This document shows positions 8,978 through 46,035 of a stretch of 64,000 nucleotides of DNA, one piece after another. Both the position numbers and the translations under genes were made by a program. This DNA is from Escherichia coli 042 (GTDB lineage: Bacteria; Pseudomonadota; Gammaproteobacteria; Enterobacterales; Enterobacteriaceae), in the NCBI RefSeq assembly GCF_000027125.1, contig NC_017626.1. One strand, given 5' to 3'. Under the pieces are notes generated by a model. It saw only the letters and a list, made by a program, of their open reading frames with translations, searched no databases and was not told where the DNA came from. Each line of letters starts with the position of its first letter. Positions within the stretch are counted from its first letter, which is position 1.

Positions 8978-9739
8978 ATGGAAACCGTTTTTGATGCACT
9001 GAAAGCAATGGGAAAAGCCACGTCGGTAGAACTGGCTGCGCGACTTGATATCAGTCGTGAAGAAGTGCTGAACGAGCTGTGGGAACTTAAAAAGGCTGGC
9101 TTCGTTGATAAAAGCGTATACACCTGGCGTGTGGCTGATAACAACGTTCAGCAGGAACAGCCAGAGCAGGCAGAACTGCCGGAAGAAACCACCACGGCAA
9201 CAGTAGCGAAAATCTCAGAGTGCGATTTAACCGCGACGATTGAACAACGTGGCCCACAAACGGCGGATGAACTGGCTACGTTTTTCGGCACCACATCACG
9301 CAAAGTGGCTTCAACGCTGGCAATGGCAATCAGCAAAGGCCGTCTGATTCGCGTTAATCAGAACGGTAAATTTCGTTACTGCATGCCGGGCGATGATTTA
9401 CCAGCAGAGCCGAAAGCTGCATCGGTAACGGAAACTGATGGTAAAGCCTTTCCTCAACCAGCAGGTGTTGCGTTACCGGGACAGGAAGCTGCAACACAGG
9501 AAGATATTAAAACAGAAACTGTGGCGGACATTGTGCAGTCGTTGCCATCGTTTACCGAAACGCGAGCGGATGACCTCGTTCTGCCATCGCTGCATATGGC
9601 AAACCGCGAACTGCGTCGGGCGAAAAATCATGTCCAGAAGTGGGAACGTGTCTGCGCCGCGCTGCGGGAGCTGAACAAGCACCGGGATATTGTTCGACAG
9701 ATTACTGATTCTTCTCGCTGTGTTGCATCGGAAAAGTGA
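8978..9739 (+). CDS. Phage hypothetical protein (YdaW-like), 253 aa
   Basis: ORF with strong RBS GGGAGGA before ATG at 8978; function unknown. Confidence 0.55.
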
Positions 9740-9754
9740 TTGCCGGAGGCGCTT

Positions 9755-10171
9755 ATGGCAAAAGTATTTACACAAGAAGAGCGGGAAAAAATCAAGGGAC
9801 AGGTTGTTGAGCTAGTACGCCGGAGTGGGCGCGAGACGTTACGGCAACTGGAAGCCAAGACAGGTGCGACAAGATATCTGATGAGCGTTCTCGCCAGAGA
9901 GCTGGTTGCCAGTGGCGATGTATACAACTCTGGCTACGGGTTATTCCCGTCTGAACAGGCTCGTAAGGACTGGCAAAATGCCCGCAAAAAACTATCTAGG
10001 GCAAAGGTGAAGAAACCATCTGTGGTTGATCCGGACCTTATCTGGTCATTACCTGACGGAGAAATACGTCGTTATGACAGGCACCAAAACATAATTTGCT
10101 GTGAGTGCCGGAAGAGCGAAGTTATGCAGCGCATACTGGCATTTTATCAGAGAAATTTTCGTTATTTATAG
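9755..10171 (+). CDS. Phage hypothetical protein, 138 aa
   Basis: ORF with GGAGG RBS; C-terminal Cys pair (CCEC). Confidence 0.5.
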   Translation: MAKVFTQEEREKIKGQVVELVRRSGRETLRQLEAKTGATRYLMSVLARELVASGDVYNSGYGLFPSEQARKDWQNARKKLSRAKVKKPSVVDPDLIWSLPDGEIRRYDRHQNIICCECRKSEVMQRILAFYQRNFRYL

Positions 10172-10334: not shown

Positions 10335-11021
10335 ATGACCCCAATAAAAATATTTATGACTATTGCTGATTTCAAACGGCCTAAATTGGAGCTCCCAAAC
10401 GGGGCAAACAAACTACTACTGCACTCTTGCTGTGCTCCATGTTCCGGTGAAGTGATGGAGGCGCTTCAGGCCTCGGGAATCGACTATACCATCTTTTTCT
10501 ACAACCCGAACATTCATCCTCAGAAAGAGTATTTAATTCGTAAGGATGAGAATATTCGCTTTGCTGAACAACACGGCGTGCCATTTATTGATGCTGATTA
10601 CGACACAGACAACTGGTTTGAACGTGCCAAAGGAATGGAATGGGAGCCCGAGAGGGGGATCCGTTGTACCATGTGTTTTGACATGCGTTTTGAGCGGACA
10701 GCGCTGTACGCTGCTGAAAATGGTTTCAGTGTGATCAGCAGTTCACTGGGCATTTCACGCTGGAAAAATATGCAGCAGGTTAACGACTGTGGGCGGCGAG
10801 CCGTCGCGCATTATCCGGGCATGGTGTACTGGGATTATAACTGGCGCAAGCAGGGCGGCTCGTCCCGCATGATTGAAATCAGCAAGCGCGAAAAATTCTA
10901 TCAGCAGGAATATTGTGGCTGTGTGTATTCTCTGCGCGATACCAATCTACACCGCAAATCTCAGGGACGCCCTCTTATCAAAATTGGTCAACTCCACTAC
11001 GGTAAAGAAGAGAAGGAGTGA
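10335..11021 (+). CDS. DUF208/QueH-like Fe-S protein (epoxyqueuosine reductase family)
   Basis: N-terminal [21 protein letters not shown] and C-terminal YCGCVYSL motifs typical of QueH. Start codon uncertain (10335 or 10356). Confidence 0.65.
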
Positions 11022-11201
11022 TTTTATGGAGCACCTTTCTTATTGATTTCATATTGGCGAGGTAGCGGGAGTTAAGTAAAATTGCTGCGGGTGCTTGAGG
11101 CTATCTGCCTCAGGCATGAACACCAAAAGGCAGATAGAGAAAAGCCCCAGTTAACATTACGCGTCCTGCAAGACGCTTAACATTAATCTGAGGCTCAATC
11201 T

Positions 11202-11414
11202 ATGCTGAACACATGTAGGTTAGCCTCTTACGTGCCGAAAGGCAAGGAGAAGCAGGCTATGAAGCAGCAAAAGGCGATGTTAATCGCCCTGATCGTCATC
11301 TGTTTAACCGTCATAGTGACGGCACTGGTAACGAGGAAAGACCTCTGCGAGGTACGAATCCGAACCGGGCAGACGGAGGTCGCTGTCTTCACAGCTTACG
11401 AACCTGAGGAGTAA
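11202..11414 (+). CDS. mok: mok-like overlapping reading frame (translational coupling to hok)
   Basis: 70-aa frame that contains the hok ORF in-frame, as in hok/mok loci. Confidence 0.5.
   Translation: MLNTCRLASYVPKGKEKQAMKQQKAMLIALIVICLTVIVTALVTRKDLCEVRIRTGQTEVAVFTAYEPEE
11259..11414 (+). CDS. hok: Hok/Gef family membrane toxin (51 aa)
   Basis: MKQQKAMLIALIVICLTVIVTALVTRKDLCEVRIRTGQTEVAVFTAYEPEE: Hok-family TM helix plus conserved C..E..R. Confidence 0.85.
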   Translation: MKQQKAMLIALIVICLTVIVTALVTRKDLCEVRIRTGQTEVAVFTAYEPEE

Positions 11415-13665: not shown

Positions 13666-13741
<76 letters not shown>

Positions 13742-13744
13742 TAT

Positions 13745-13819
<75 letters not shown>

Positions 13820-15906: not shown

Positions 15907-17364
15907 ATGAATACATCTCATGTAAGAGTTGTTACTCATATGTGTGGGTTCCTGGTTTGGCTCTATAGTCTTTCAATGTTGCCACCAATGGTTGTAGCAT
16001 TGTTTTATAAAGAAAAAAGCCTGTTCGTTTTCTTTATAACTTTCGTTATATTTTTTTGCATTGGTGGCGGAGCGTGGTATACAACTAAGAAATCTGGTAT
16101 TCAATTACGTACCCGTGATGGGTTTATTATAATTGTAATGTTTTGGATTTTGTTTTCTGTTATTAGTGCATTCCCTTTATGGATTGACTCAGAACTTAAT
16201 TTAACGTTTATTGATGCTCTATTTGAAGGGGTTTCTGGAATAACAACAACAGGAGCAACTGTAATTGATGATGTTAGTTCATTACCTCGGGCATATTTGT
16301 ACTATCGGTCACAGTTAAATTTTATAGGTGGCTTAGGAGTTATTGTTCTGGCGGTTGCTGTATTGCCATTATTGGGTATTGGTGGTGCAAAGCTTTATCA
16401 GTCAGAAATGCCAGGGCCATTTAAGGATGACAAACTTACTCCCCGCCTGGCCGATACGTCACGGACACTTTGGATAACTTATTCTTTATTAGGTATTGCT
16501 TGTATTGTCTGTTATAGACTTGCAGGAATGCCTTTGTTTGATGCTATTTGTCACGGGATATCCACAGTTTCGCTTGGTGGTTTCTCAACTCATAGCGAGA
16601 GTATCGGATATTTTAATAACTATTTGGTTGAGCTGGTGGCTGGTTCTTTTTCCCTGCTATCGGCTTTCAACTTCACCCTTTGGTATATTGTTATTAGCAG
16701 GAAAACGTTAAAACCTTTAATCAGAGATATTGAACTTCGTTTCTTTCTGTTAATAGCCTTAGGGGTGATCATTGTTACCTCTTTCCAGGTCTGGCATATA
16801 GGTATGTATGACTTGCCTGGAAGTTTTATTCATTCGTTTTTTCTTGCCAGCTCCATGCTCACTGATAATGGTTTAGCTACGCAGGATTACGCAAACTGGC
16901 CCACGCACACGATAGTGTTTTTGCTGTTGTCAAGTTTCTTTGGGGGATGTATAGGTTCAACTTGTGGTGGAATTAAGTCACTTCGATTTCTTATACTTTT
17001 CAAACAAAGCAAACACGAGATAAACCAGCTTTCTCATCCCAGAGCGTTGTTGAGTGTAAATGTAGGAGGGAAGATAGTTACAGATCGTGTAATGAGGTCT
17101 GTATGGAGTTTCTTTTTTCTTTATACTCTCTTCACGGTGTTTTTTATACTGGTGTTAAATGGTATGGGATATGATTTTCTTACATCATTTGCAACAGTGG
17201 CTGCATGTATTAATAATATGGGATTAGGTTTTGGGGCTACTGCATCGTCATTCGGAGTGCTTAATGACATTGCAAAATATTTAATGTGCATAGCTATGAT
17301 TCTTGGTCGCCTTGAAATTTATCCTGTTATTATATTGTTTTCAGGTTTTTTTTGGCGCTCCTAA
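15907..17364 (+). CDS. trkG: Potassium uptake protein TrkG (485 aa)
   Basis: Polytopic membrane protein matching TrkG/TrkH; AT-rich relative to flanks. Confidence 0.85.
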   Translation: MNTSHVRVVTHMCGFLVWLYSLSMLPPMVVALFYKEKSLFVFFITFVIFFCIGGGAWYTTKKSGIQLRTRDGFIIIVMFWILFSVISAFPLWIDSELNLTFIDALFEGVSGITTTGATVIDDVSSLPRAYLYYRSQLNFIGGLGVIVLAVAVLPLLGIGGAKLYQSEMPGPFKDDKLTPRLADTSRTLWITYSLLGIACIVCYRLAGMPLFDAICHGISTVSLGGFSTHSESIGYFNNYLVELVAGSFSLLSAFNFTLWYIVISRKTLKPLIRDIELRFFLLIALGVIIVTSFQVWHIGMYDLPGSFIHSFFLASSMLTDNGLATQDYANWPTHTIVFLLLSSFFGGCIGSTCGGIKSLRFLILFKQSKHEINQLSHPRALLSVNVGGKIVTDRVMRSVWSFFFLYTLFTVFFILVLNGMGYDFLTSFATVAACINNMGLGFGATASSFGVLNDIAKYLMCIAMILGRLEIYPVIILFSGFFWRS

Positions 17365-17501
17365 TATATGGCTGATTTATAATTGTGAGTTTAATATTAT
17401 ATTGACTCACTCATTGATCCAATACCTAACTTTACCAGCAACACCTCCGCCCCCAGTAGCACTGGCTGCTGGGGTGCGTTTTATTCATAAAGCAAGGCTG
17501 T

Positions 17502-18293
17502 ATGAGCGAGAAATTGAAGATCGTCTATCGCCCTTTACAAGAACTGTCTCCGTATGCACACAACGCCAGGACACACAGCCCTGAGCAGGTGGCACAACTG
17601 GTAGAAAGCATTAAGCAATTCGGCTGGACTAATCCGGTGCTGATTGATGAAAAGGGCGAAATTATTGCTGGTCACGGTCGCGTTATGGCGGCTGAAGTGC
17701 TCAAAATGGATTCCATTCCGGTCATCGTTCTGTCTGGTTTGATGGATGATCAGAAAAAGGCGTACCGCCTGGCAGATAATCGCCTGCCGCTGAACGCTGG
17801 CTGGGATGAAGAACTGTTGCGGATGGAGCTGTCGGAGCTAATCAATGCTGATTTTGATATCTCCCTGACAGGATTCAGCCCGACAGAAATTGATGAACTG
17901 TTGACGGATGTTTTGCCAGGTACAGGAAATGAGGAGGAGCCGTACACGACGAAAATTGATACGCCTGTTTATGAGCCGTCGGGCGATAAACCGGACATCA
18001 GTGAGCTGTACGACGATACGAAAACTCAGGAGCTGATCAGCCGGATACGTTCGGCGTCCCTTGAGCCCGATATCGAAAAATTCCTCCTGTGCGCGGCAGA
18101 ACGCCACACGGTGTTTAATTTCAGCAGAATTGCGGACTATTACGCTCACGCCCCCGCTGAAATTCAGTGTTTTTTCGAGGAGTCGGCGCTGGTGATCATT
18201 GATTATCAGCAGGCTATTGAAAATGGATTTGTCCGGATGACGCAGCGCATGGTGGAGATCATGCATGGTGGTGAGGAGGAGGAATATGCGTGA
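17502..18293 (+). CDS. ParB-like nuclease domain protein, 263 aa
   Basis: N-terminal ParB/Srx-like motif (GHGR..A); acidic C-terminus. Confidence 0.65.
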   Translation: MSEKLKIVYRPLQELSPYAHNARTHSPEQVAQLVESIKQFGWTNPVLIDEKGEIIAGHGRVMAAEVLKMDSIPVIVLSGLMDDQKKAYRLADNRLPLNAGWDEELLRMELSELINADFDISLTGFSPTEIDELLTDVLPGTGNEEEPYTTKIDTPVYEPSGDKPDISELYDDTKTQELISRIRSASLEPDIEKFLLCAAERHTVFNFSRIADYYAHAPAEIQCFFEESALVIIDYQQAIENGFVRMTQRMVEIMHGGEEEEYA

Positions 18294-19218
18294 TGATTTT
18301 TGCGCCTTTATTCTGACTCACGGGCGACCGGACAAAGTTCTGACTTACCGGACGTTGCGTCGTGCTGGCTATACCGGGAAAATTTTTATCGTTGTTGATG
18401 ATGAAGATAAGACACGGCATCAGTACATGGCTGAATTTGGTGAACAGGTGCTGGTGTTTTCCAAAGCCGATATCGCCAGTCGTTTTGACGAAGCCGATAA
18501 TTTCGGTGACCGCCGCTCAATTTTTTACGCCCGTAATGCCTGTTTCGACCTGGCAAAACTGGTCGGGTGTAAATACTTCATTCAGCTCGATGATGATTAT
18601 CACGAGTTCCAGTTTCGGGTGGATCGCAACTATGACCAGGCCTATTTTCCGATAAGGAAACTGGATGCGATCCTTTCTGAAATGCTGGCGTACTACGAAT
18701 CAATACCTGCTCTTTCCATCGCTATGTCGCAGGGCGGGGATTTTCTTGGTGACAATGGCGGCCATGCTTCGTGGGTGAAACGCAAGGCAATGAACAGCTT
18801 TATCTGTTCGGTTGATCGACCGTTCTCATTCATGGGGCGCATTAACGAGGATGTGAATACGTACACGAATCTCGGTCGCTGTGGTGAATTGTTTATGACG
18901 ATCGGTGCTGTCCAGTTAGGGCAGAAACAGACGCAGAAAAACAGCGGCGGAATGACCGAGCTGTATCTGGATTCCGGAACCTACGTTAAAAGTTTTTACT
19001 CCGTCATGTATGCGCCGTCGTGCGTAAAAATCTCACTGATGGGTGCCAGCCATAAACGCATTCACCATCAGGTCACCTGGAACAACGCTGCAGTAAAAAT
19101 CCTTCACGAAAAATACAGGAAGAAGACACCCTGCATATCAATAGGGGTGACAAATGATTCCATATTCGAAAGTCGAGTCTCTGGCAGCGTGCCGGATGAC
19201 TGCACAACAAATCGCTGA
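18286..19218 (+). CDS. Hypothetical protein, 310 aa (possible nucleotide-sugar transferase-like fold)
   Basis: Strong RBS GAGGAGGAGG; motifs FILTHGRP, IVVDDED, FIQLDDDY suggest DXD-type transferase but unverified. Confidence 0.5.
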   Translation: MRDDFCAFILTHGRPDKVLTYRTLRRAGYTGKIFIVVDDEDKTRHQYMAEFGEQVLVFSKADIASRFDEADNFGDRRSIFYARNACFDLAKLVGCKYFIQLDDDYHEFQFRVDRNYDQAYFPIRKLDAILSEMLAYYESIPALSIAMSQGGDFLGDNGGHASWVKRKAMNSFICSVDRPFSFMGRINEDVNTYTNLGRCGELFMTIGAVQLGQKQTQKNSGGMTELYLDSGTYVKSFYSVMYAPSCVKISLMGASHKRIHHQVTWNNAAVKILHEKYRKKTPCISIGVTNDSIFESRVSGSVPDDCTTNR

Positions 19219-19405
19219 CGTTCTGGATGTTGATCTGAACCGACTGAAAGAAAATCGGGAAGCAATGACAGATTTTTATGCGGCCATCCGTAAGGGCAGA
19301 GCGAAAGGTGAAGCCGAGTTACGAGCGGCATTGTTTAAGCTTGCCAGAAAAGGGGATGCCTTTGCTCTGCGCGAACTACTCAGGGTGGATAAAAATCAGG
19401 ACTAA
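19154..19405 (+). CDS. Small HTH-like phage protein, 83 aa
   Basis: ORF overlapping end of upstream gene; start uncertain. Confidence 0.4.
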   Translation: MIPYSKVESLAACRMTAQQIADVLDVDLNRLKENREAMTDFYAAIRKGRAKGEAELRAALFKLARKGDAFALRELLRVDKNQD

Positions 19406-19408
19406 CTG

Positions 19409-20503
19409 ATGAGCAGACCGGACTGGGGGGCGTTGCAGCAGGAGTATATTGCTGAATACACCCGCTCCGGTATATCTCCGGTGGCATGGTGTGAAGCAAG
19501 GGGACTGAATTACGCAACAGCCCGTCGTTACATCAAAAAACCTCCGAAAAATGCGCAGACAGAAATGCGCAAAACTGCGCAAAAAAGTGCGCAGAAAAAA
19601 TCTGCGCAGACTGCACAAAAGCGGAACGAAAAATCTCAGGAAAAAAAGCCAGTATTCGATGCGGGCCTGAATGAGGGCGACGCGGAGGAATTTTCGTTCT
19701 GTCCCGATGAATTCGGCATTTCTGACCAGCAGGCTAAGTTTGCGATGCTTGTTGCTCAGGGGAAAAAGCCGACAGAGGCGTACCGACTAGCCGGTTATGA
19801 GGGGCAAGGTGCGACAGCTAACAGCAACGCCAGTCGTATGCTTAGAAATGCCAGGGTTTTTCGCGCTATCAGCTACTTCCGCAATCAGTACCAGAAACGC
19901 TATACCGCAGACCTGGATTTACTGGTGAGTCAGTTGATGGCCATTGTCCTGGCCGACCCCAATCAGCTTGCACAATTTCGCCGTGTTAACTGCCGTTATT
20001 GCTGGGGCGAGAATCATCTCTACCAGTGGCGCGATATAGCAGAATTCGACAAGGCAGCGGCGCAGGCTTCCAGAGATGGCAAACCCGAACCGGAATATGG
20101 AGGCCTCGGCTTTGTTGATAACGCCATACCCAATCCGGACTGCCCGAAGTGCTGCGGTGAGGGAACGGGACAGCTTTATATGGCTGATACCACTCTGCTT
20201 GATGGGGATGCGCGGCAATTATATGCAGGGGCAAAACTCGGAAAATTCGGCGTTGAGATCCTGCTGGAGGATAAGGCTGCCGCCCGGCGTGAATTGTTGC
20301 GTTTGCTTTCTGCTGGCGGGGCTTTATGTGCAGATAAGCGGCTACAGGAACTGGAAATTGAACGACGCAGAATGGAAAACCAGAAGCTGCGCAAAGAGAT
20401 CGAAACGGTGGAAGATAATGAACATCCCCAGCCTGTGGCGATCAATATTAATGTGGTTGATGCCAGAGTAAGGAGTGATGAAGATGATCTCTCCGACGCT
20501 TAA
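19409..20503 (+). CDS. Terminase small subunit (P27-type), 364 aa
   Basis: N-terminal HTH, position directly upstream of large terminase. Confidence 0.7.
   Translation: MSRPDWGALQQEYIAEYTRSGISPVAWCEARGLNYATARRYIKKPPKNAQTEMRKTAQKSAQKKSAQTAQKRNEKSQEKKPVFDAGLNEGDAEEFSFCPDEFGISDQQAKFAMLVAQGKKPTEAYRLAGYEGQGATANSNASRMLRNARVFRAISYFRNQYQKRYTADLDLLVSQLMAIVLADPNQLAQFRRVNCRYCWGENHLYQWRDIAEFDKAAAQASRDGKPEPEYGGLGFVDNAIPNPDCPKCCGEGTGQLYMADTTLLDGDARQLYAGAKLGKFGVEILLEDKAAARRELLRLLSAGGALCADKRLQELEIERRRMENQKLRKEIETVEDNEHPQPVAININVVDARVRSDEDDLSDA
19550..19620 (+). repeat. TGCGCA(G/A) direct-repeat array (5-6 copies, 9-15 bp spacing)
   Basis: tgcgca at 19552, 19566, 19576, 19588, 19603, degenerate 19612. Confidence 0.6.
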
Positions 20504-21785
20504 TGTGCCTCAGGCGCGATTTCTTTCAATGCCCCATAAATTTAAAGCCTATATTGCTGGTTTTGGCTCGGGCAAAACATGGGTTGGGTGTGGCGGCATA
20601 TGCAAGGGGATTTGGGAGCATCCAGGTATAAATCAGGGATATTTTGCGCCAACGTATCCCCAAATTCGCGATATTTTTTACCCTACAGTGGAAGAAGTTG
20701 CTGCTGACTGGGGATTGAACGTAAAAATTAATGAGGGAAATAAAGAGGTTCACTTTTATTACGGACGCCAGTATCGGGGAACCACTATCTGCAGATCGAT
20801 GGAGAAGCCACAAACGATCGTCGGTTTCAAAATTGGTAATGCGCTGGTGGATGAACTGGACATTTTGCCGAAGGAAAAAGCCAGAACGGCGTGGCGCAAG
20901 ATAATTGCGCGTATGCGTTATAAGATTGATGGACTTCGCAACGGTATTGACGTTACAACCACGCCGGAAGGATTCAAATTTGTCTACGAGCAGTTTGTTA
21001 AAGCCGTGCGTGAAAAAACAGAGCTGGCCTCACTGTATGGTCTGGTGCAGGCATCTACTTTCGATAATGAAAAGAACCTGCCAGCAGATTACATTCCTTC
21101 GCTTCTTGAATCATACCCACCAGAGCTGATTAAAGCCTATCTTCGAGGACAGTTTACTAACCTGACAAGTGGTACTGTTTACCATCAGTTTGACCGGAAA
21201 CTGAATAATTGCGAAGAAGTGGAGCAGCCAGGGGAGCCGATTTATATTGGGATGGATTTTAACGTTGGAAAGATGGCGGGGATCGTCCATGTGCTGCGTT
21301 TGGGGCTTCCATGTGCGGTAACTGAAATCATCAATGCCTACGATACGCCGGATATGATCCGCATCATTAAAGAACGCTTCTGGCTGTATGACGGGAATGA
21401 TTACCGGAAAGTGAGGGAGATTTATATTTATCCAGATGCTTCCGGAGATTCCAGAAAATCAAGTAACGCAAGTACGACGGATATAGCCCAGCTTAAGCAG
21501 GCTGGTTTTAACGTTGTGGTGAACAGCTCGAACCCGCCAGTAAAAGATCGCGTTAACTCAATGAATGCAATGTTCTGCAATGCCAATGGTGAGCGTCGCT
21601 ATAAAGTTAATGTGAAGCGTTGTCCGGTATATGCCGAATCTCTGGAGCAACAGGTCTGGGATGATAAGGGGGAGCCTGATAAAAAATCTGGCAATGATCA
21701 CCCGAATGATGCCGGAGGTTATTTCATCGTTAAGCAATTCCCTATTGTCAAACCGACCGGAAGAGTCACATCACTTCGGATTTAA
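20475..21785 (+). CDS. Terminase large subunit, 436 aa
   Basis: Walker A GFGSGKT near N-terminus; size and position. Confidence 0.85.
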   Translation: MMKMISPTLNVPQARFLSMPHKFKAYIAGFGSGKTWVGCGGICKGIWEHPGINQGYFAPTYPQIRDIFYPTVEEVAADWGLNVKINEGNKEVHFYYGRQYRGTTICRSMEKPQTIVGFKIGNALVDELDILPKEKARTAWRKIIARMRYKIDGLRNGIDVTTTPEGFKFVYEQFVKAVREKTELASLYGLVQASTFDNEKNLPADYIPSLLESYPPELIKAYLRGQFTNLTSGTVYHQFDRKLNNCEEVEQPGEPIYIGMDFNVGKMAGIVHVLRLGLPCAVTEIINAYDTPDMIRIIKERFWLYDGNDYRKVREIYIYPDASGDSRKSSNASTTDIAQLKQAGFNVVVNSSNPPVKDRVNSMNAMFCNANGERRYKVNVKRCPVYAESLEQQVWDDKGEPDKKSGNDHPNDAGGYFIVKQFPIVKPTGRVTSLRI

Positions 21786-29253: not shown

Positions 29254-29715
29254 ATGAGGTTATGGATGTTTATTCTTAATCAGAAAATTATCATCGGTGG
29301 TGAACGCTGGTTTACCCCAATGAAGGACTTAAAACCTGTAGACGGGTTAAAACTGTTGGTGGCAAGCAGCGATAACGATCAGTATCGCTCCCGTAATGCA
29401 TTAATCCGTCGCCACATTGAGAAAATGGATGCCAGTTTGCACGTCGGAACGAAGGAGTTTGATATTGCAAAGGTTTCCGAGGTGGATTCTGTTGATGATT
29501 TACTCATTGATAATGCTGCTCGTTATCTGCTGAAAGACTGGAAAGGGGTTGGTGAACTGGTTGATGGTGTTGAGGTTGCACTGGAATATACGCCAGAACG
29601 AGGGATCGCGCTGCTTAAGCAGAATCCGGAGTTGTACTGGCAGATCCTTGCAGAAGCAGCCAGCATCGCCCAGGGTAAAGAGCAGCAGAAGCAGGATACG
29701 ATAAAAAAGCCATAG
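29254..29715 (+). CDS. Tail assembly chaperone (G-like), 153 aa
   Basis: RBS AGGGGGG; ends just after slippery heptamer. Confidence 0.7.
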   Translation: MRLWMFILNQKIIIGGERWFTPMKDLKPVDGLKLLVASSDNDQYRSRNALIRRHIEKMDASLHVGTKEFDIAKVSEVDSVDDLLIDNAARYLLKDWKGVGELVDGVEVALEYTPERGIALLKQNPELYWQILAEAASIAQGKEQQKQDTIKKP

Positions 29716-43972: not shown

Positions 43973-44323
43973 AAAAAGGTGAGCTGTATATGCAACGGAG
44001 GAAGAAACCCCGTTGCTGGAAGCCTGGAAAAAGTATCGGATGCTGCTGAACCGTGTTGATACATCAACTGCACCTGATATTGAGTGGCCTACGAACCCTG
44101 TCAGGGAGTAATCATTGGGATTATGCCGCAGAAACGTTGTATGCAATAACGTTCTGCGGTTGGCTGATGCACTTTCGAGAGTGCATGTATTGAATTATTT
44201 CCAGCTATTATCGATTTTACGTATTTTTTGCATGAGAGAATTTGTACCTCCTCCCAACAACGACCTTCCATGACTTTCCGGACTTCTGTGGGCCAGCGGA
44301 CGATGCTGCCCTCGGATGTTGTG

Positions 44324-45181
44324 CTAATTGGGTGATGACAAATCCTGTGTATGGGTGTTTCCCTTTGTGCGTGCGTTGATGCTGGTAACGGTGAACGTCA
44401 TGATGAACACAACCGCGAATAAGACGACAATCGTCGGAGCTGGTGCACTGTCGATAAAAAAGGACAACCAGACACCAGTCATTGACACTATTACCGATAT
44501 GCCAATCGCCAGTAGGAGCGCAATATGAAAGCGTTGTGTCAGGAGTACCGCAATGGCGCCAGGCGCAATGAGCAGAGAAATGGAGAGAATGATACCTACC
44601 GCTTTCAGCGTCGCCACAATGGTCAGAGAGACCATGCACAGCAGCCCATAATGCAGACATCTCGTATGCAAACCGCTTACCTGCGCCTGTTGATAATCAA
44701 AGCTGAACAGCAAAAAATCCCGCCATTTTACGCTAATAACAAGTGTAACCAACCCGGCAATAATCACCGTCTGGATTATATCGCCGATGGTTACCCCGAG
44801 CATGTCGCCGAAAAGAATATGGTCAAGATGTACGTCTGGTTTGACTGCAATATACAAGATCAGACCTGCGGCAAACATGCCAGAAAAAACAATCCCCATC
44901 ACTGTATCTTGCTTGATTCGGCTGTTGTCTTTCAGGTATCCCGTCGCCACCGCGCAGAATACTCCGGCGACGAATGCCCCTGTAGCCAGAGGTAACCCCA
45001 GAATCCAGGCAAGCACGATGCCAGGAAAAACCGCATGACTCATCGCGTCACCCATCAGTGCCCAACCTTTCAGGACCAGAAAGACCGACAGCAGCGCACA
45101 GGGTATGGAAACTACCAGTGAAATCAGCAGTGCGTGACTCATAAAGGTGAACTGCAGTGGCTCCAGTAATAATGCCATCAT
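44324..45181 (-). CDS. sitD: Mn/Fe ABC transporter permease SitD
   Basis: Polytopic permease; operon order sitABCD. Confidence 0.9.
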   Translation of the reverse strand: MMALLLEPLQFTFMSHALLISLVVSIPCALLSVFLVLKGWALMGDAMSHAVFPGIVLAWILGLPLATGAFVAGVFCAVATGYLKDNSRIKQDTVMGIVFSGMFAAGLILYIAVKPDVHLDHILFGDMLGVTIGDIIQTVIIAGLVTLVISVKWRDFLLFSFDYQQAQVSGLHTRCLHYGLLCMVSLTIVATLKAVGIILSISLLIAPGAIAVLLTQRFHIALLLAIGISVIVSMTGVWLSFFIDSAPAPTIVVLFAVVFIMTFTVTSINARTKGNTHTQDLSSPN

Positions 45182-46035
45182 GAGCGATCCTCCAGCGCTT
45201 TATGCGCACGCCGACGATTTGCCAAAAGCCCATGGGTGGGCGCAAATACAAATGCTAAAAGAAACAGCAGTGTCTGCGCCACCACGATGATTCCACCTGT
45301 CGCGCCGTCCAGAAAGTAACTGACCCACGCGCCGAGGAAACTGGTTACACTGCCAATAGTTACAGCAATTATGAGCAGGCGGGGAAAATGATCGGTTAAC
45401 AACCATGCTGTTGCACCGGGAGTCACCACCAGACAGATCACCAGAAAGGCACCAACCGTTTGCAGCGCCGCAACGGTCGAAACCGACAGCAGGGTGAAGA
45501 AGAGGATTTTTAATCTGCCCGGATGCAATCCAATAGCACGAGCGTGATTCTCGTCGAAAAAGGTCACCATAAGATCTTTCCATTTGAAAAAAAGCACGAT
45601 GATCGAGAGAATGCCAATGATAGTGAGTTGCAGGATATCCGCCGGATCGATTGCCAGAATATTGCCCAGGACGATGGTCTGAATGTTCACGGATGTCGGG
45701 TTCAATGACACCATAAACAGCCCCAGGCCAAAAAAGGAGGAGAAGATCAGGCCGATGATGGCATCTTCTTTTAAGCGAGTGCGTTGGTTAAGAAACAGCA
45801 TGCTGCCCGCTGCCAGTCCGCCGGAAAAGAAGGCTCCCAGAGAAAACGGAAGCCCCAGCATATATGCCCCCGCAACACCCGGGACAATAGAGTGCGACAG
45901 CGCATCGCCAATCAGCGACCAGCCTTTTAGCATCAGATAGCATGACAGGAAAGCGCAGAGACCGCCGACCATCGCCGAGACCCACATCGCATTGAGCATA
46001 TATTCATAGCTGAAGGGTTCCAGTAGCACGTTCAT
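45178..46035 (-). CDS. sitC: Mn/Fe ABC transporter permease SitC
   Basis: Polytopic permease paralogous to SitD. Confidence 0.9.

Follow-up and report, generated by a model that had tools for sequence, protein, structure and literature searches.

Sugar hypermodification of phage genomes is understood as a process of two steps. In the first, a hydroxymethyl handle is provided by a TET/JBP-type or thymidylate-synthase-like enzyme; in the second, a glycosyltransferase (GT) adds the sugar. The subject of this work is a pair of adjacent prophage genes in Escherichia coli 042, located at positions 17502 to 19218 of a stretch of 64,000 nucleotides (contig NC_017626.1 of the NCBI RefSeq assembly GCF_000027125.1; the whole stretch is called the window below). 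They lie just ahead of the terminase genes and encode a protein of 263 amino acids (aa) with a ParB/Srx-type head, called here the partner, and a GT of 310 aa, called here the transferase. In this two-gene cassette, a transferase of the family known from phage hypermodification is found with no handle-making enzyme and always with a small dedicated partner.

Among described enzymes, the nearest to the transferase are the GTs associated with phage TET/JBP enzymes (5mYOX). They belong, as does the cassette transferase, to the Pfam family TAGT (PF20691, TET-Associated Glycosyltransferase), and share its GT-A fold and DXD motif. They are also phage-encoded and often found near ParB and terminase genes, as in the cassette. 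TAGT-type and other phage GTs place mono- to trisaccharides on 5-hydroxymethylcytosine (5hmC) (bioRxiv 10.1101/2023.12.21.572611), and the family has eukaryotic relatives, namely the kinetoplastid base-J glucosyltransferase and GREB1. In contrast to the 5mYOX-associated systems, the cassette comes without a TET/JBP enzyme, a C5-methyltransferase or a hydroxymethylase, a source of 5hmC or 5-hydroxymethyluracil (5hmU) is not evident, and the transferase has an obligate partner with an undescribed tail module.

For the partner, the closest described protein is ParB176, which activates the phage thymine dioxygenase 5mYOX176 specifically on double-stranded DNA (O'Toole et al. 2026, PMC13229309). 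ParB proteins had earlier been proposed to steer DNA-modifying enzymes during packaging, according to a statement cited in PMC8256090. When the model of the cassette partner is set beside the description of ParB176 in PMC13229309, the two agree in layout: a head is followed by short helices, a disordered linker and then a C-terminal domain (compared here by description only), and neither protein has a DNA-binding domain. Both proteins are also encoded beside a phage enzyme of a DNA-modifying type, with cognate pairing. Nevertheless, the enzyme of the cassette is a TAGT GT in every locus and no dioxygenase was found, and in some loci related to the cassette the tail alone makes up the partner, whereas ParB176 needed both of its domains.

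An obligate pair ahead of unrelated terminases

A first-pass annotation of this DNA, made from the letters alone, had placed two open reading frames (ORFs) before the terminase, one of 263 aa with an acidic tail and one of 310 aa. Both are confirmed by an ORF scan and by RefSeq. The partner gene (17502..18293, +) matches PHROG 620 at 1.5e-88 and Pfam ParB_N at 5.8e-6, and the transferase gene follows at 18286..19218 (+). A word-index search with the transferase returned at least 8000 protein clusters, all of them significant, and a representative library gave 1329 matches at E <= 0.001. As judged from such sequence comparisons, both ORFs are clearly real genes and not chance ORFs.

The same annotation had suggested that the two proteins work as a pair, and this is borne out by their distribution. 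Loci with relatives of the transferase (n = 166) were collected from E. coli genomes, from phages with an annotation and from IMG/VR contigs, the distant ones with a 14-sequence alignment; the lowest identity is 52%. A gene of the partner family lies upstream on the same strand in all 166 loci, and it is adjacent or overlapping in 157. After dereplication at 85% identity, 48 loci remained, in which the only common families are the transferase (47 loci) and the partner (46 loci, in 45 of them at position -1). All other families are present in at most 12 loci, and clustering of all neighbours in these 48 loci yielded no recurrent third gene near the pair. The stop codon of the partner gene overlaps the start of the transferase gene in nearly all loci.

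Downstream of the pair, at least four large-terminase families with no relation to one another are represented (PHROG 2, 15 and 38, and the type of phage c5). The pair is annotated in the Lactobacillus phages phi jlb1 and c5, in the Nocardia phage NTR1, in a Porphyromonas phage, where the identity of the transferase is as low as 28%, and in the haloarchaeal virus HHTV-2 (Haloarcula). The hosts include Proteobacteria, Firmicutes, Actinobacteria, Bacteroidetes and one haloarchaeon. It is firmly established that the two genes are an obligate pair, that is, a two-component unit in which the GT-A enzyme is the catalytic subunit and the other member is dedicated to it, and equally that this unit is translationally coupled to the packaging genes.

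The constant element of the partner is not the ParB head, which is optional, but a tail of about 110 aa composed of a YTxKIxxPxYEP motif and a helical bundle. Several loci have an upstream gene for just the motif and the helical domain (134-153 aa). A profile of the tail matches at least about 8000 clusters, and two architectures are seen among the 120 best matches: stand-alone proteins of 126-153 aa (a few reach 189 aa) with no Pfam match, and ParB-fused proteins of 240-270 aa. All three of the stand-alone tail genes examined sit immediately upstream of a TAGT gene, one of them with a methyltransferase gene in between, and these three pairs lie in replication/recombination regions, away from the terminase. 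Similarly, Vibrio jumbo phages (e.g. pv27, 191 kb; L168 3459-4888) encode a tail-only partner, the transferase and a helicase far from the packaging genes. On a metagenomic phage contig (L133 7015-10596), a tail gene and a GT gene are followed in tandem by a second tail gene and a second GT gene, and then by a radical-SAM-like gene (SAM, S-adenosylmethionine). This arrangement indicates that each transferase has its own partner.

The transferase and its partner protein

The ORF of the transferase opens at 18265, from where it would give 317 aa. The start at 18286, which gives 310 aa and agrees with the RefSeq coordinates, is preferred because a Shine-Dalgarno sequence, GAGGAGGAGGAA, is read at 18273..18284 (+), within the 3′ end of the partner gene, because the start overlaps the upstream stop by 8 nucleotides (nt), and because homologues begin with MRDDF. 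The position of this Shine-Dalgarno sequence inside the end of the partner gene implies that translation of the transferase would be coupled to that of the partner.

The product is a soluble, GREB1-related GT-A glycosyltransferase with a conserved core at residues 1-281, and its membership in the TAGT family is firmly established. It matches PF20691 with an independent E-value of 1.4e-34 (residues 15-229 of the 317-aa form) and PHROG 842 at 2.6e-103, and newer RefSeq records name it 'GREB1-related protein'. No NCBIfam model matches it, PADLOC has nothing for it or for the 83-aa ORF that follows, and a sequence search of the PDB with its profile returned a chance match only (E 0.8). An AlphaFold2 model built from 98 homologues is confident, with a mean predicted local distance difference test (pLDDT) score of 90.9, and has the single Rossmann-like GT-A fold; TAGT-domain proteins are 47 of the 50 structural neighbours in AFDB50 among the matches listed.

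The first-pass annotation had pointed to a DXD-type transferase on the basis of three motifs, FILTHGRP (residues 8-15), IVVDDED (35-41) and FIQLDDDY (98-105). These motifs are present and conserved and, with the PF20691 match and the confident GT-A model, this reading holds. For instance, I9, R14, D41, D102-D104 and Y105 are conserved in at least 90% of 98 representatives that are 39-55% identical to the query. The DDD stretch D102-D103-D104 (18589..18597, +; GAT GAT GAT) comes after model strand 97-102 as a DXD metal and nucleotide-sugar motif, and it is invariant in two further alignments (A2 and A4). The transferase has no membrane segment, and the family is mildly basic, with a median isoelectric point (pI) of 8.7. 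At the C-terminus, residues 282-310 (29 residues; 19129..19218, +, with the stop codon included) form an unconserved run-on. Homologues end at about residue 281, and the last 30 residues of the model have pLDDT values of only 49-67.

The label of PHROG 842 is 'beta-glucosyl-HMC-alpha-glucosyltransferase' (HMC, hydroxymethylcytosine), and this label is all that the transferase shares with the enzyme of that name in T2 and T6. None of the 45 tblastn matches in 50,697 phage records is a T2, T4 or T6 record, although distant members do occur in T4-like Aeromonas phages. In addition, the prophage has no dCMP hydroxymethylase and makes no hydroxymethylcytosine. A relationship to the T-even enzyme was consequently rejected, and the label is a case of annotation transfer.

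The partner is a very acidic protein (pI 4.47, net charge -26, with the end ...GGEEEEYA), as is its family (median pI 4.52). Its putative nucleotide-binding head, at residues 1-135 (17502..17906, +), has the ParB/Srx fold. Residues 3-144 best resemble ParB heads fused to DNA methyltransferases (phrog_498, 2.8e-50; PADLOC MTase_II, 5.7e-37; see also Kaljevic et al. 2025, PMC12704722), and the head is much closer to these phage proteins than to partition ParBs. In contrast to such fusions, the cassette head is joined to the tail module, the GT is a separate protein, and there is no methyltransferase domain; PADLOC likewise matches only the ParB-like N-terminus of its type II methyltransferase model. 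In the one locus examined for this, two N6_N4 DNA methyltransferase genes, with no ParB head recorded, are found a few genes upstream of the pair, on the terminase side.

With the canonical CTP clamps ParB, Noc and KorB, the head shares the N-terminal fold and the pocket positions N21, R60, D92 and N93. In an alignment of 37 family members, N21 and G57 do not vary, D92 and N93 hardly do, and R60 is conserved in at least 90%. Box II (canonical GERRxRA), however, reads GHGR instead of GERR, with the catalytic glutamate replaced by histidine (asparagine in relatives) and the first arginine by glycine. Thus, nucleotide binding by the head is plausible, with an altered hydrolysis chemistry to be expected from these replacements. 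The partner also differs from the canonical proteins in having no recognisable dimerisation domain and no helix-turn-helix DNA-binding domain; the matches to ParB, Noc and KorB end at the head. There is no parA gene in the prophage, none of the 37 family members, the cassette partner included, has the ParA-binding motif [LFI]G[KR]G[LFI], and the NCBIfam model parB_part reaches only 36 bits, below its cutoff of 58.45. A role in partition (ParABS) was rejected on account of the missing DNA-binding domain, parA and ParA-binding motif. The word 'nuclease', which the first-pass annotation had applied to the partner, is a historical Pfam naming of the ParB domain, and nothing indicates such an activity.

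Behind the head, residues 138-153 are modelled as disordered (pLDDT below 50), and the linker motif Y148-T-T-K-I-D-T-P-V-Y157-E-P (17943..17978, +) begins inside this segment. Among the 37 sequences, the tyrosines Y148 and Y157 never vary and P155 is kept in at least 90%; the two tyrosines and the proline are still invariant once the stand-alone tail proteins join the alignment. The helical domain that follows, at about residues 160-240 (17979..18221, +), has R201, H202, Y214, Q222, E226 and D234 as invariant residues, and it gave neither a structural match nor a Pfam family.

E. coli K-12 was said to keep two decayed remnants of this module, ynaK and a ydaY pseudogene. The first is indeed the beginning of the partner gene, of which it comprises the first 87 codons. 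By contrast, ydaY does not come from the module, nor does its annotation call it a pseudogene; its place in the intact prophage is behind the tail-tube gene, at window positions 29356-29715. In K-12, a deletion that begins after codon 87 of the partner gene removes everything up to ydaY, which brings ynaK and ydaY side by side (MG1655, L176 4378-4981). Overexpression of K-12 ynaK, that is, of the first third of the partner gene, raised the minimal inhibitory concentrations of six antibiotics in one genome-wide screen (PMC12924614). As a separate observation, RefSeq describes the partner gene of E. coli JNEC-KY178 (L001 20103-20894) as 'incomplete, missing C-terminus' (20103-20360), while the ORF scan gives an intact gene of 263 aa. 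The truncated K-12 YnaK may act as a reference model by which intact partner genes are flagged as partial.

The acceptor of the sugar

We propose as the most likely function, tentatively and with a chance somewhat short of even, that the pair glycosylates the phage genome late, after replication, and that the partner loads the enzyme or activates it. The pair would be the phage's own two-component GT, made late together with the packaging proteins. Its catalytic subunit would be the soluble, mildly basic TAGT enzyme, which would use the DDD motif and a divalent metal to take a sugar from a nucleotide-sugar donor. The tail of about 110 residues would act as a transferase-specific module, and the ParB/Srx head as an added nucleotide-binding switch. 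By analogy with ParB176, the partner would load or activate the transferase on phage DNA that has been replicated, shortly before packaging or in its course. Sugar adducts on the packaged genome would then weaken the effect of restriction and of other nucleases once the next host is entered. In this scheme, we infer DNA as the acceptor, the partner as activator of the enzyme, and protection as the benefit.

The link to DNA is drawn because the head is nearest to the methyltransferase-fused ParB heads, because the architecture of the partner is like that of ParB176, because the stand-alone pairs lie among replication and recombination genes, and because the transferase family is basic. The first-pass annotation had already raised the idea of a DNA-modification unit, and this idea agrees with what has been predicted, and shown by experiment, for base-modifying enzymes linked to ParB (PMC8256090, PMC13229309).

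Several points weigh against DNA glycosylation. TET/JBP enzymes, C5-methyltransferases and hydroxymethylases, thymidylate-synthase-like ones included, are not annotated in the prophage or in the complete 31.8-kb genome of phage c5, nor do any of them recur near the pair, and the rest of the window has no annotated source of hydroxymethyl-pyrimidines either. When the Pfam families of 105 neighbour proteins are ranked by frequency, TET_JBP is not among the first 20, where a single match outside these 20 would be possible. With no source of hydroxymethyl-pyrimidines, the acceptor cannot be 5hmC or 5hmU made by the phage, and we know of no phage precedent for the direct glycosylation of unmodified DNA bases. 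The partner, with a net charge of -26, has no DNA-binding domain. Contigs with GTs but no 5mYOX or ThyS are considered less likely to take part in DNA hypermodification (Pyle et al.), and the ParB-dependent dioxygenases are tied to kinases and aminoacyl transferases, not to GTs (O'Toole et al., PMC13229309). Finally, GREB1, the eukaryotic member of the family, has been reported to O-GlcNAcylate a protein, the estrogen receptor ER-alpha (PMC7968844). It is because of the missing acceptor source, the acidic partner without a DNA-binding domain, the view of Pyle et al. and the case of GREB1 that the proposal is kept tentative.

In some relatives, the pair is extended by other enzymes. A class I SAM methyltransferase is a minority accessory, found in 5 of the 48 dereplicated loci. 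One family of such enzymes (Methyltransf_23-like, with 35-45% mutual identity) is present as a C-terminal fusion, as an N-terminal fusion, or as a separate gene between partner and transferase (L145 7244-8008; proteins P0128, P0131, P0165 and P0167), and a distinct class I methyltransferase lies upstream of the partner in one enterobacterial prophage. The transferases of relatives can also be fused to a second TAGT domain, to a carbohydrate-type sulfotransferase, or to a P-loop domain of no assigned family. In the fusion proteins checked, the partner is still upstream and the terminase downstream. Radical SAM genes stand beside the pair in three loci. For instance, L170 80-3270 has a radical SAM gene, a ParB partner and then a P-loop-GT fusion, while L178 5001-8230 adds a Glyco_transf_9 fragment; these two loci may be richer versions of the pathway and could reveal the acceptor chemistry. 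In general, the accessory additions look like glycan tailoring, although the radical SAM enzymes could also belong to the acceptor chemistry. Tailoring of this kind by the fused domains would resemble the mono- to trisaccharide DNA glycans reported for phage GTs (bioRxiv 10.1101/2023.12.21.572611).

A broader version of the proposal is that the pair is a self-sufficient two-subunit GT whose acceptor is not a hydroxymethyl-pyrimidine at all, being either unmodified DNA under a ParB-type switch or the Tyr/Thr motif of the partner itself. Such an enzyme is possible but doubtful. To our knowledge, the chemistry in which a sugar is put directly on unmodified DNA under a ParB-type switch has been described for no phage. 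If this version is true, with either acceptor, the tail of about 110 residues would represent a new domain family, one that determines the way in which a large TAGT branch works.

The main rival, less likely, is that the acceptor is a protein rather than DNA, so that the transferase would O-glycosylate Y148, T149 or Y157 of the partner, or else a packaging or virion protein, with the tail as substrate or carrier. The difficulty of the missing hydroxymethyl-pyrimidine source would then no longer exist. The sole constant companion of the transferase is a tail whose invariant Y..P.Y motif starts in a disordered segment, the pairing is one to one even in the tandem duplication, and GREB1, of the same Pfam family, offers the reported precedent of ER-alpha (PMC7968844). 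The fusions with a sulfotransferase, a methyltransferase or a second GT suit the tailoring of any glycan. Nevertheless, the partner head and the family context favour DNA, the stand-alone pairs are located among replication genes and not structural ones, and the invariant motif could equally be a docking peptide. Moreover, in the literature searched, no glycoprotein was found reported for any phage that carries the pair.

It is improbable that the pair acts on a foreign or small target, whether the hydroxymethylated DNA of superinfecting T-even phages or a nucleotide signal or cofactor of host defence. The label of PHROG 842 and the distant members in T4-like Aeromonas phages would fit such a role, and Pyle et al. 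raise the possibility that prophage GTs hypermodify invading genomes. The ParB fold is also known to bind various nucleoside triphosphates (PMC12704722), and read-through from the expressed trkG insertion upstream could allow the pair to be expressed in the lysogen. However, the label is an annotation transfer and the T-even records are missing from the tblastn matches mentioned above, no PADLOC model exists for the transferase, and a terminator-like hairpin lies between trkG and the pair. In addition, the presence of the pair in the non-temperate-looking phage c5 and in an archaeal virus, within late or replication modules, points to a job for the phage itself.

It is very improbable that two unrelated genes simply share an insertion spot, a ParB-like partition, nuclease or packaging-site protein beside a GT that alters the cell surface: the lysis-terminase interval is a known site of accessory insertions that also holds trkG, and prophage GTs such as TarP do modify surface polymers, but the strict adjacency and stop/start overlap in nearly all loci extend across phyla and domains, a partner made of the tail alone still accompanies the transferase at sites far from terminases, there is no parA or parS-binding domain and no ParA-binding motif in any of the 37 members, and the transferase has no transmembrane segment and the prophage no flippase or bactoprenol partner for it. 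On these last grounds, the absence of membrane segments and of partner genes in the prophage, a surface-polysaccharide GT of lysogenic conversion was rejected as a candidate.

Prophage setting and meaning of the cassette

The cassette is located in an intact Rac-like lambdoid prophage, and the remaining DNA of the window is host chromosome. In order, the prophage carries recET, kilR, sieB, the repressor region, the replication genes and a nin-like region with tRNA-Thr and tRNA-Gly. Next come the lysis genes, trkG, the gene pair, the 83-aa ORF, the genes for the small and large terminase, the portal, the head and the tail, and finally cdtABC. Positions 17400-19500 of the window match E. coli APEC O1 (NC_008563.1) at 100%, and the RefSeq features of that genome coincide with the window ORFs. 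This 2.1-kb stretch is present in 1605 of 5426 complete E. coli genomes, with a coverage of at least 80% in 865, which places the frequency of the cassette at about 16-30% of complete E. coli genomes.

The gene trkG, which separates the lysis genes from the cassette, is a low-GC insertion (15907-17364; GC 0.32-0.40 against about 0.50 around it). A terminator-like hairpin at 17451..17474 (+), with a 10-bp stem and then a T-run, was found by a consensus scan only and is probably the terminator of this insertion. With the hairpin between trkG and the cassette, late antiterminated transcription would need to read through it.

The 83-aa ORF at 19154..19405 (+) is present as the first-pass annotation had it, overlapping the 3′ end of the transferase gene by 65 nt. 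It is helix-turn-helix-like, resembles part of some small terminase subunits and matches PHROG 309 at 8.3e-23. Its family is at position +1 in 8 of the dereplicated loci, and 7 of these 8 proteins begin with M[IL]P[YF]xK[VI]ESLAAC. In relatives, the transferase stop and the start of this ORF overlap by 4 nt, and its own stop overlaps the start of the small terminase gene. The 83-aa ORF is a real gene, and its translation is coupled to that of its two neighbours, the transferase and the small terminase. The 65-nt overlap in E. coli is explained by the unconserved 29-residue run-on of the transferase there. A frameshift, which the first-pass annotation had considered at the transferase end, does not hold, and read-through at the junctions among these three genes is likewise rejected, as homologues end at about residue 281 and the genes of relatives are joined by overlaps of 4 nt or 1 nt. 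RefSeq starts this gene at 19196 (69 aa), and so drops 14 N-terminal residues that are kept in relatives (M[IL]P[YF]xK[VI]ESLAACRM). A Shine-Dalgarno sequence, AGGGGTG, precedes the ATG at 19154, and the 83-aa form is likely to be the product rather than the 69-aa form.

The small terminase subunit gene (19409..20503, +; 364 aa; PHROG 51 at 1.7e-76) follows, and then the large one (20484..21785, +, from the RefSeq coordinates; PHROG 10250 and PHROG 2). The small terminase ORF is intact in the window, with 364 uninterrupted codons, whereas the RefSeq annotation of APEC O1 gives it as a pseudogene with an 'internal stop'. It is in the same frame as the 83-aa ORF, with a gap of TAA and one codon, which may have confused an annotation based on protein models. 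The frame relation between these two genes varies among relatives, and the shared frame in the window is a coincidence.

Other genes of the prophage can be noted in passing. The early, nin-like region contains, at 9422-10087, a gene for the epoxyqueuosine reductase QueH, which is unusual prophage cargo; other queuosine or 7-deazaguanine genes are absent from the prophage, and no link between QueH and the cassette was found. Genes for a Hok/Gef toxin and a Doc-family toxin are also in the early region (10344-11373), and tRNA-Thr and tRNA-Gly lie at 13666-13819, ahead of the lysis genes. The type IV cytolethal distending toxin operon cdtABC (44117-45822, the end being calculated from the coordinates of the RefSeq record) forms the right end of the prophage, where it comes after the tail-fibre genes and is followed by genes for an alpha/beta hydrolase and an omptin protease.

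The gene family and its general neighbourhood of ParB, GT and terminase genes are already known from computational and recent experimental work. What appears to be new, according to the searchable literature, is the strict pairing of a large TAGT branch with a domain that databases leave unnamed, the optional nature of the ParB head, and the absence of a hydroxymethyl-pyrimidine pathway. The labels 'partitioning protein', 'nuclease' and 'beta-glucosyl-HMC-alpha-glucosyltransferase' are misleading and can be corrected, as can the start of the 83-aa gene. The cassette is also common and experimentally tractable, being part of an inducible-looking Rac-like prophage in a sequenced E. coli. If DNA is what the pair modifies, an acceptor different from the hydroxymethylated bases would be implied, and the cassette would be a second independent case of a ParB-type protein that steers a DNA-modifying enzyme. 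If, instead, the pair modifies a protein, it would represent a new kind of phage glycosylation system.

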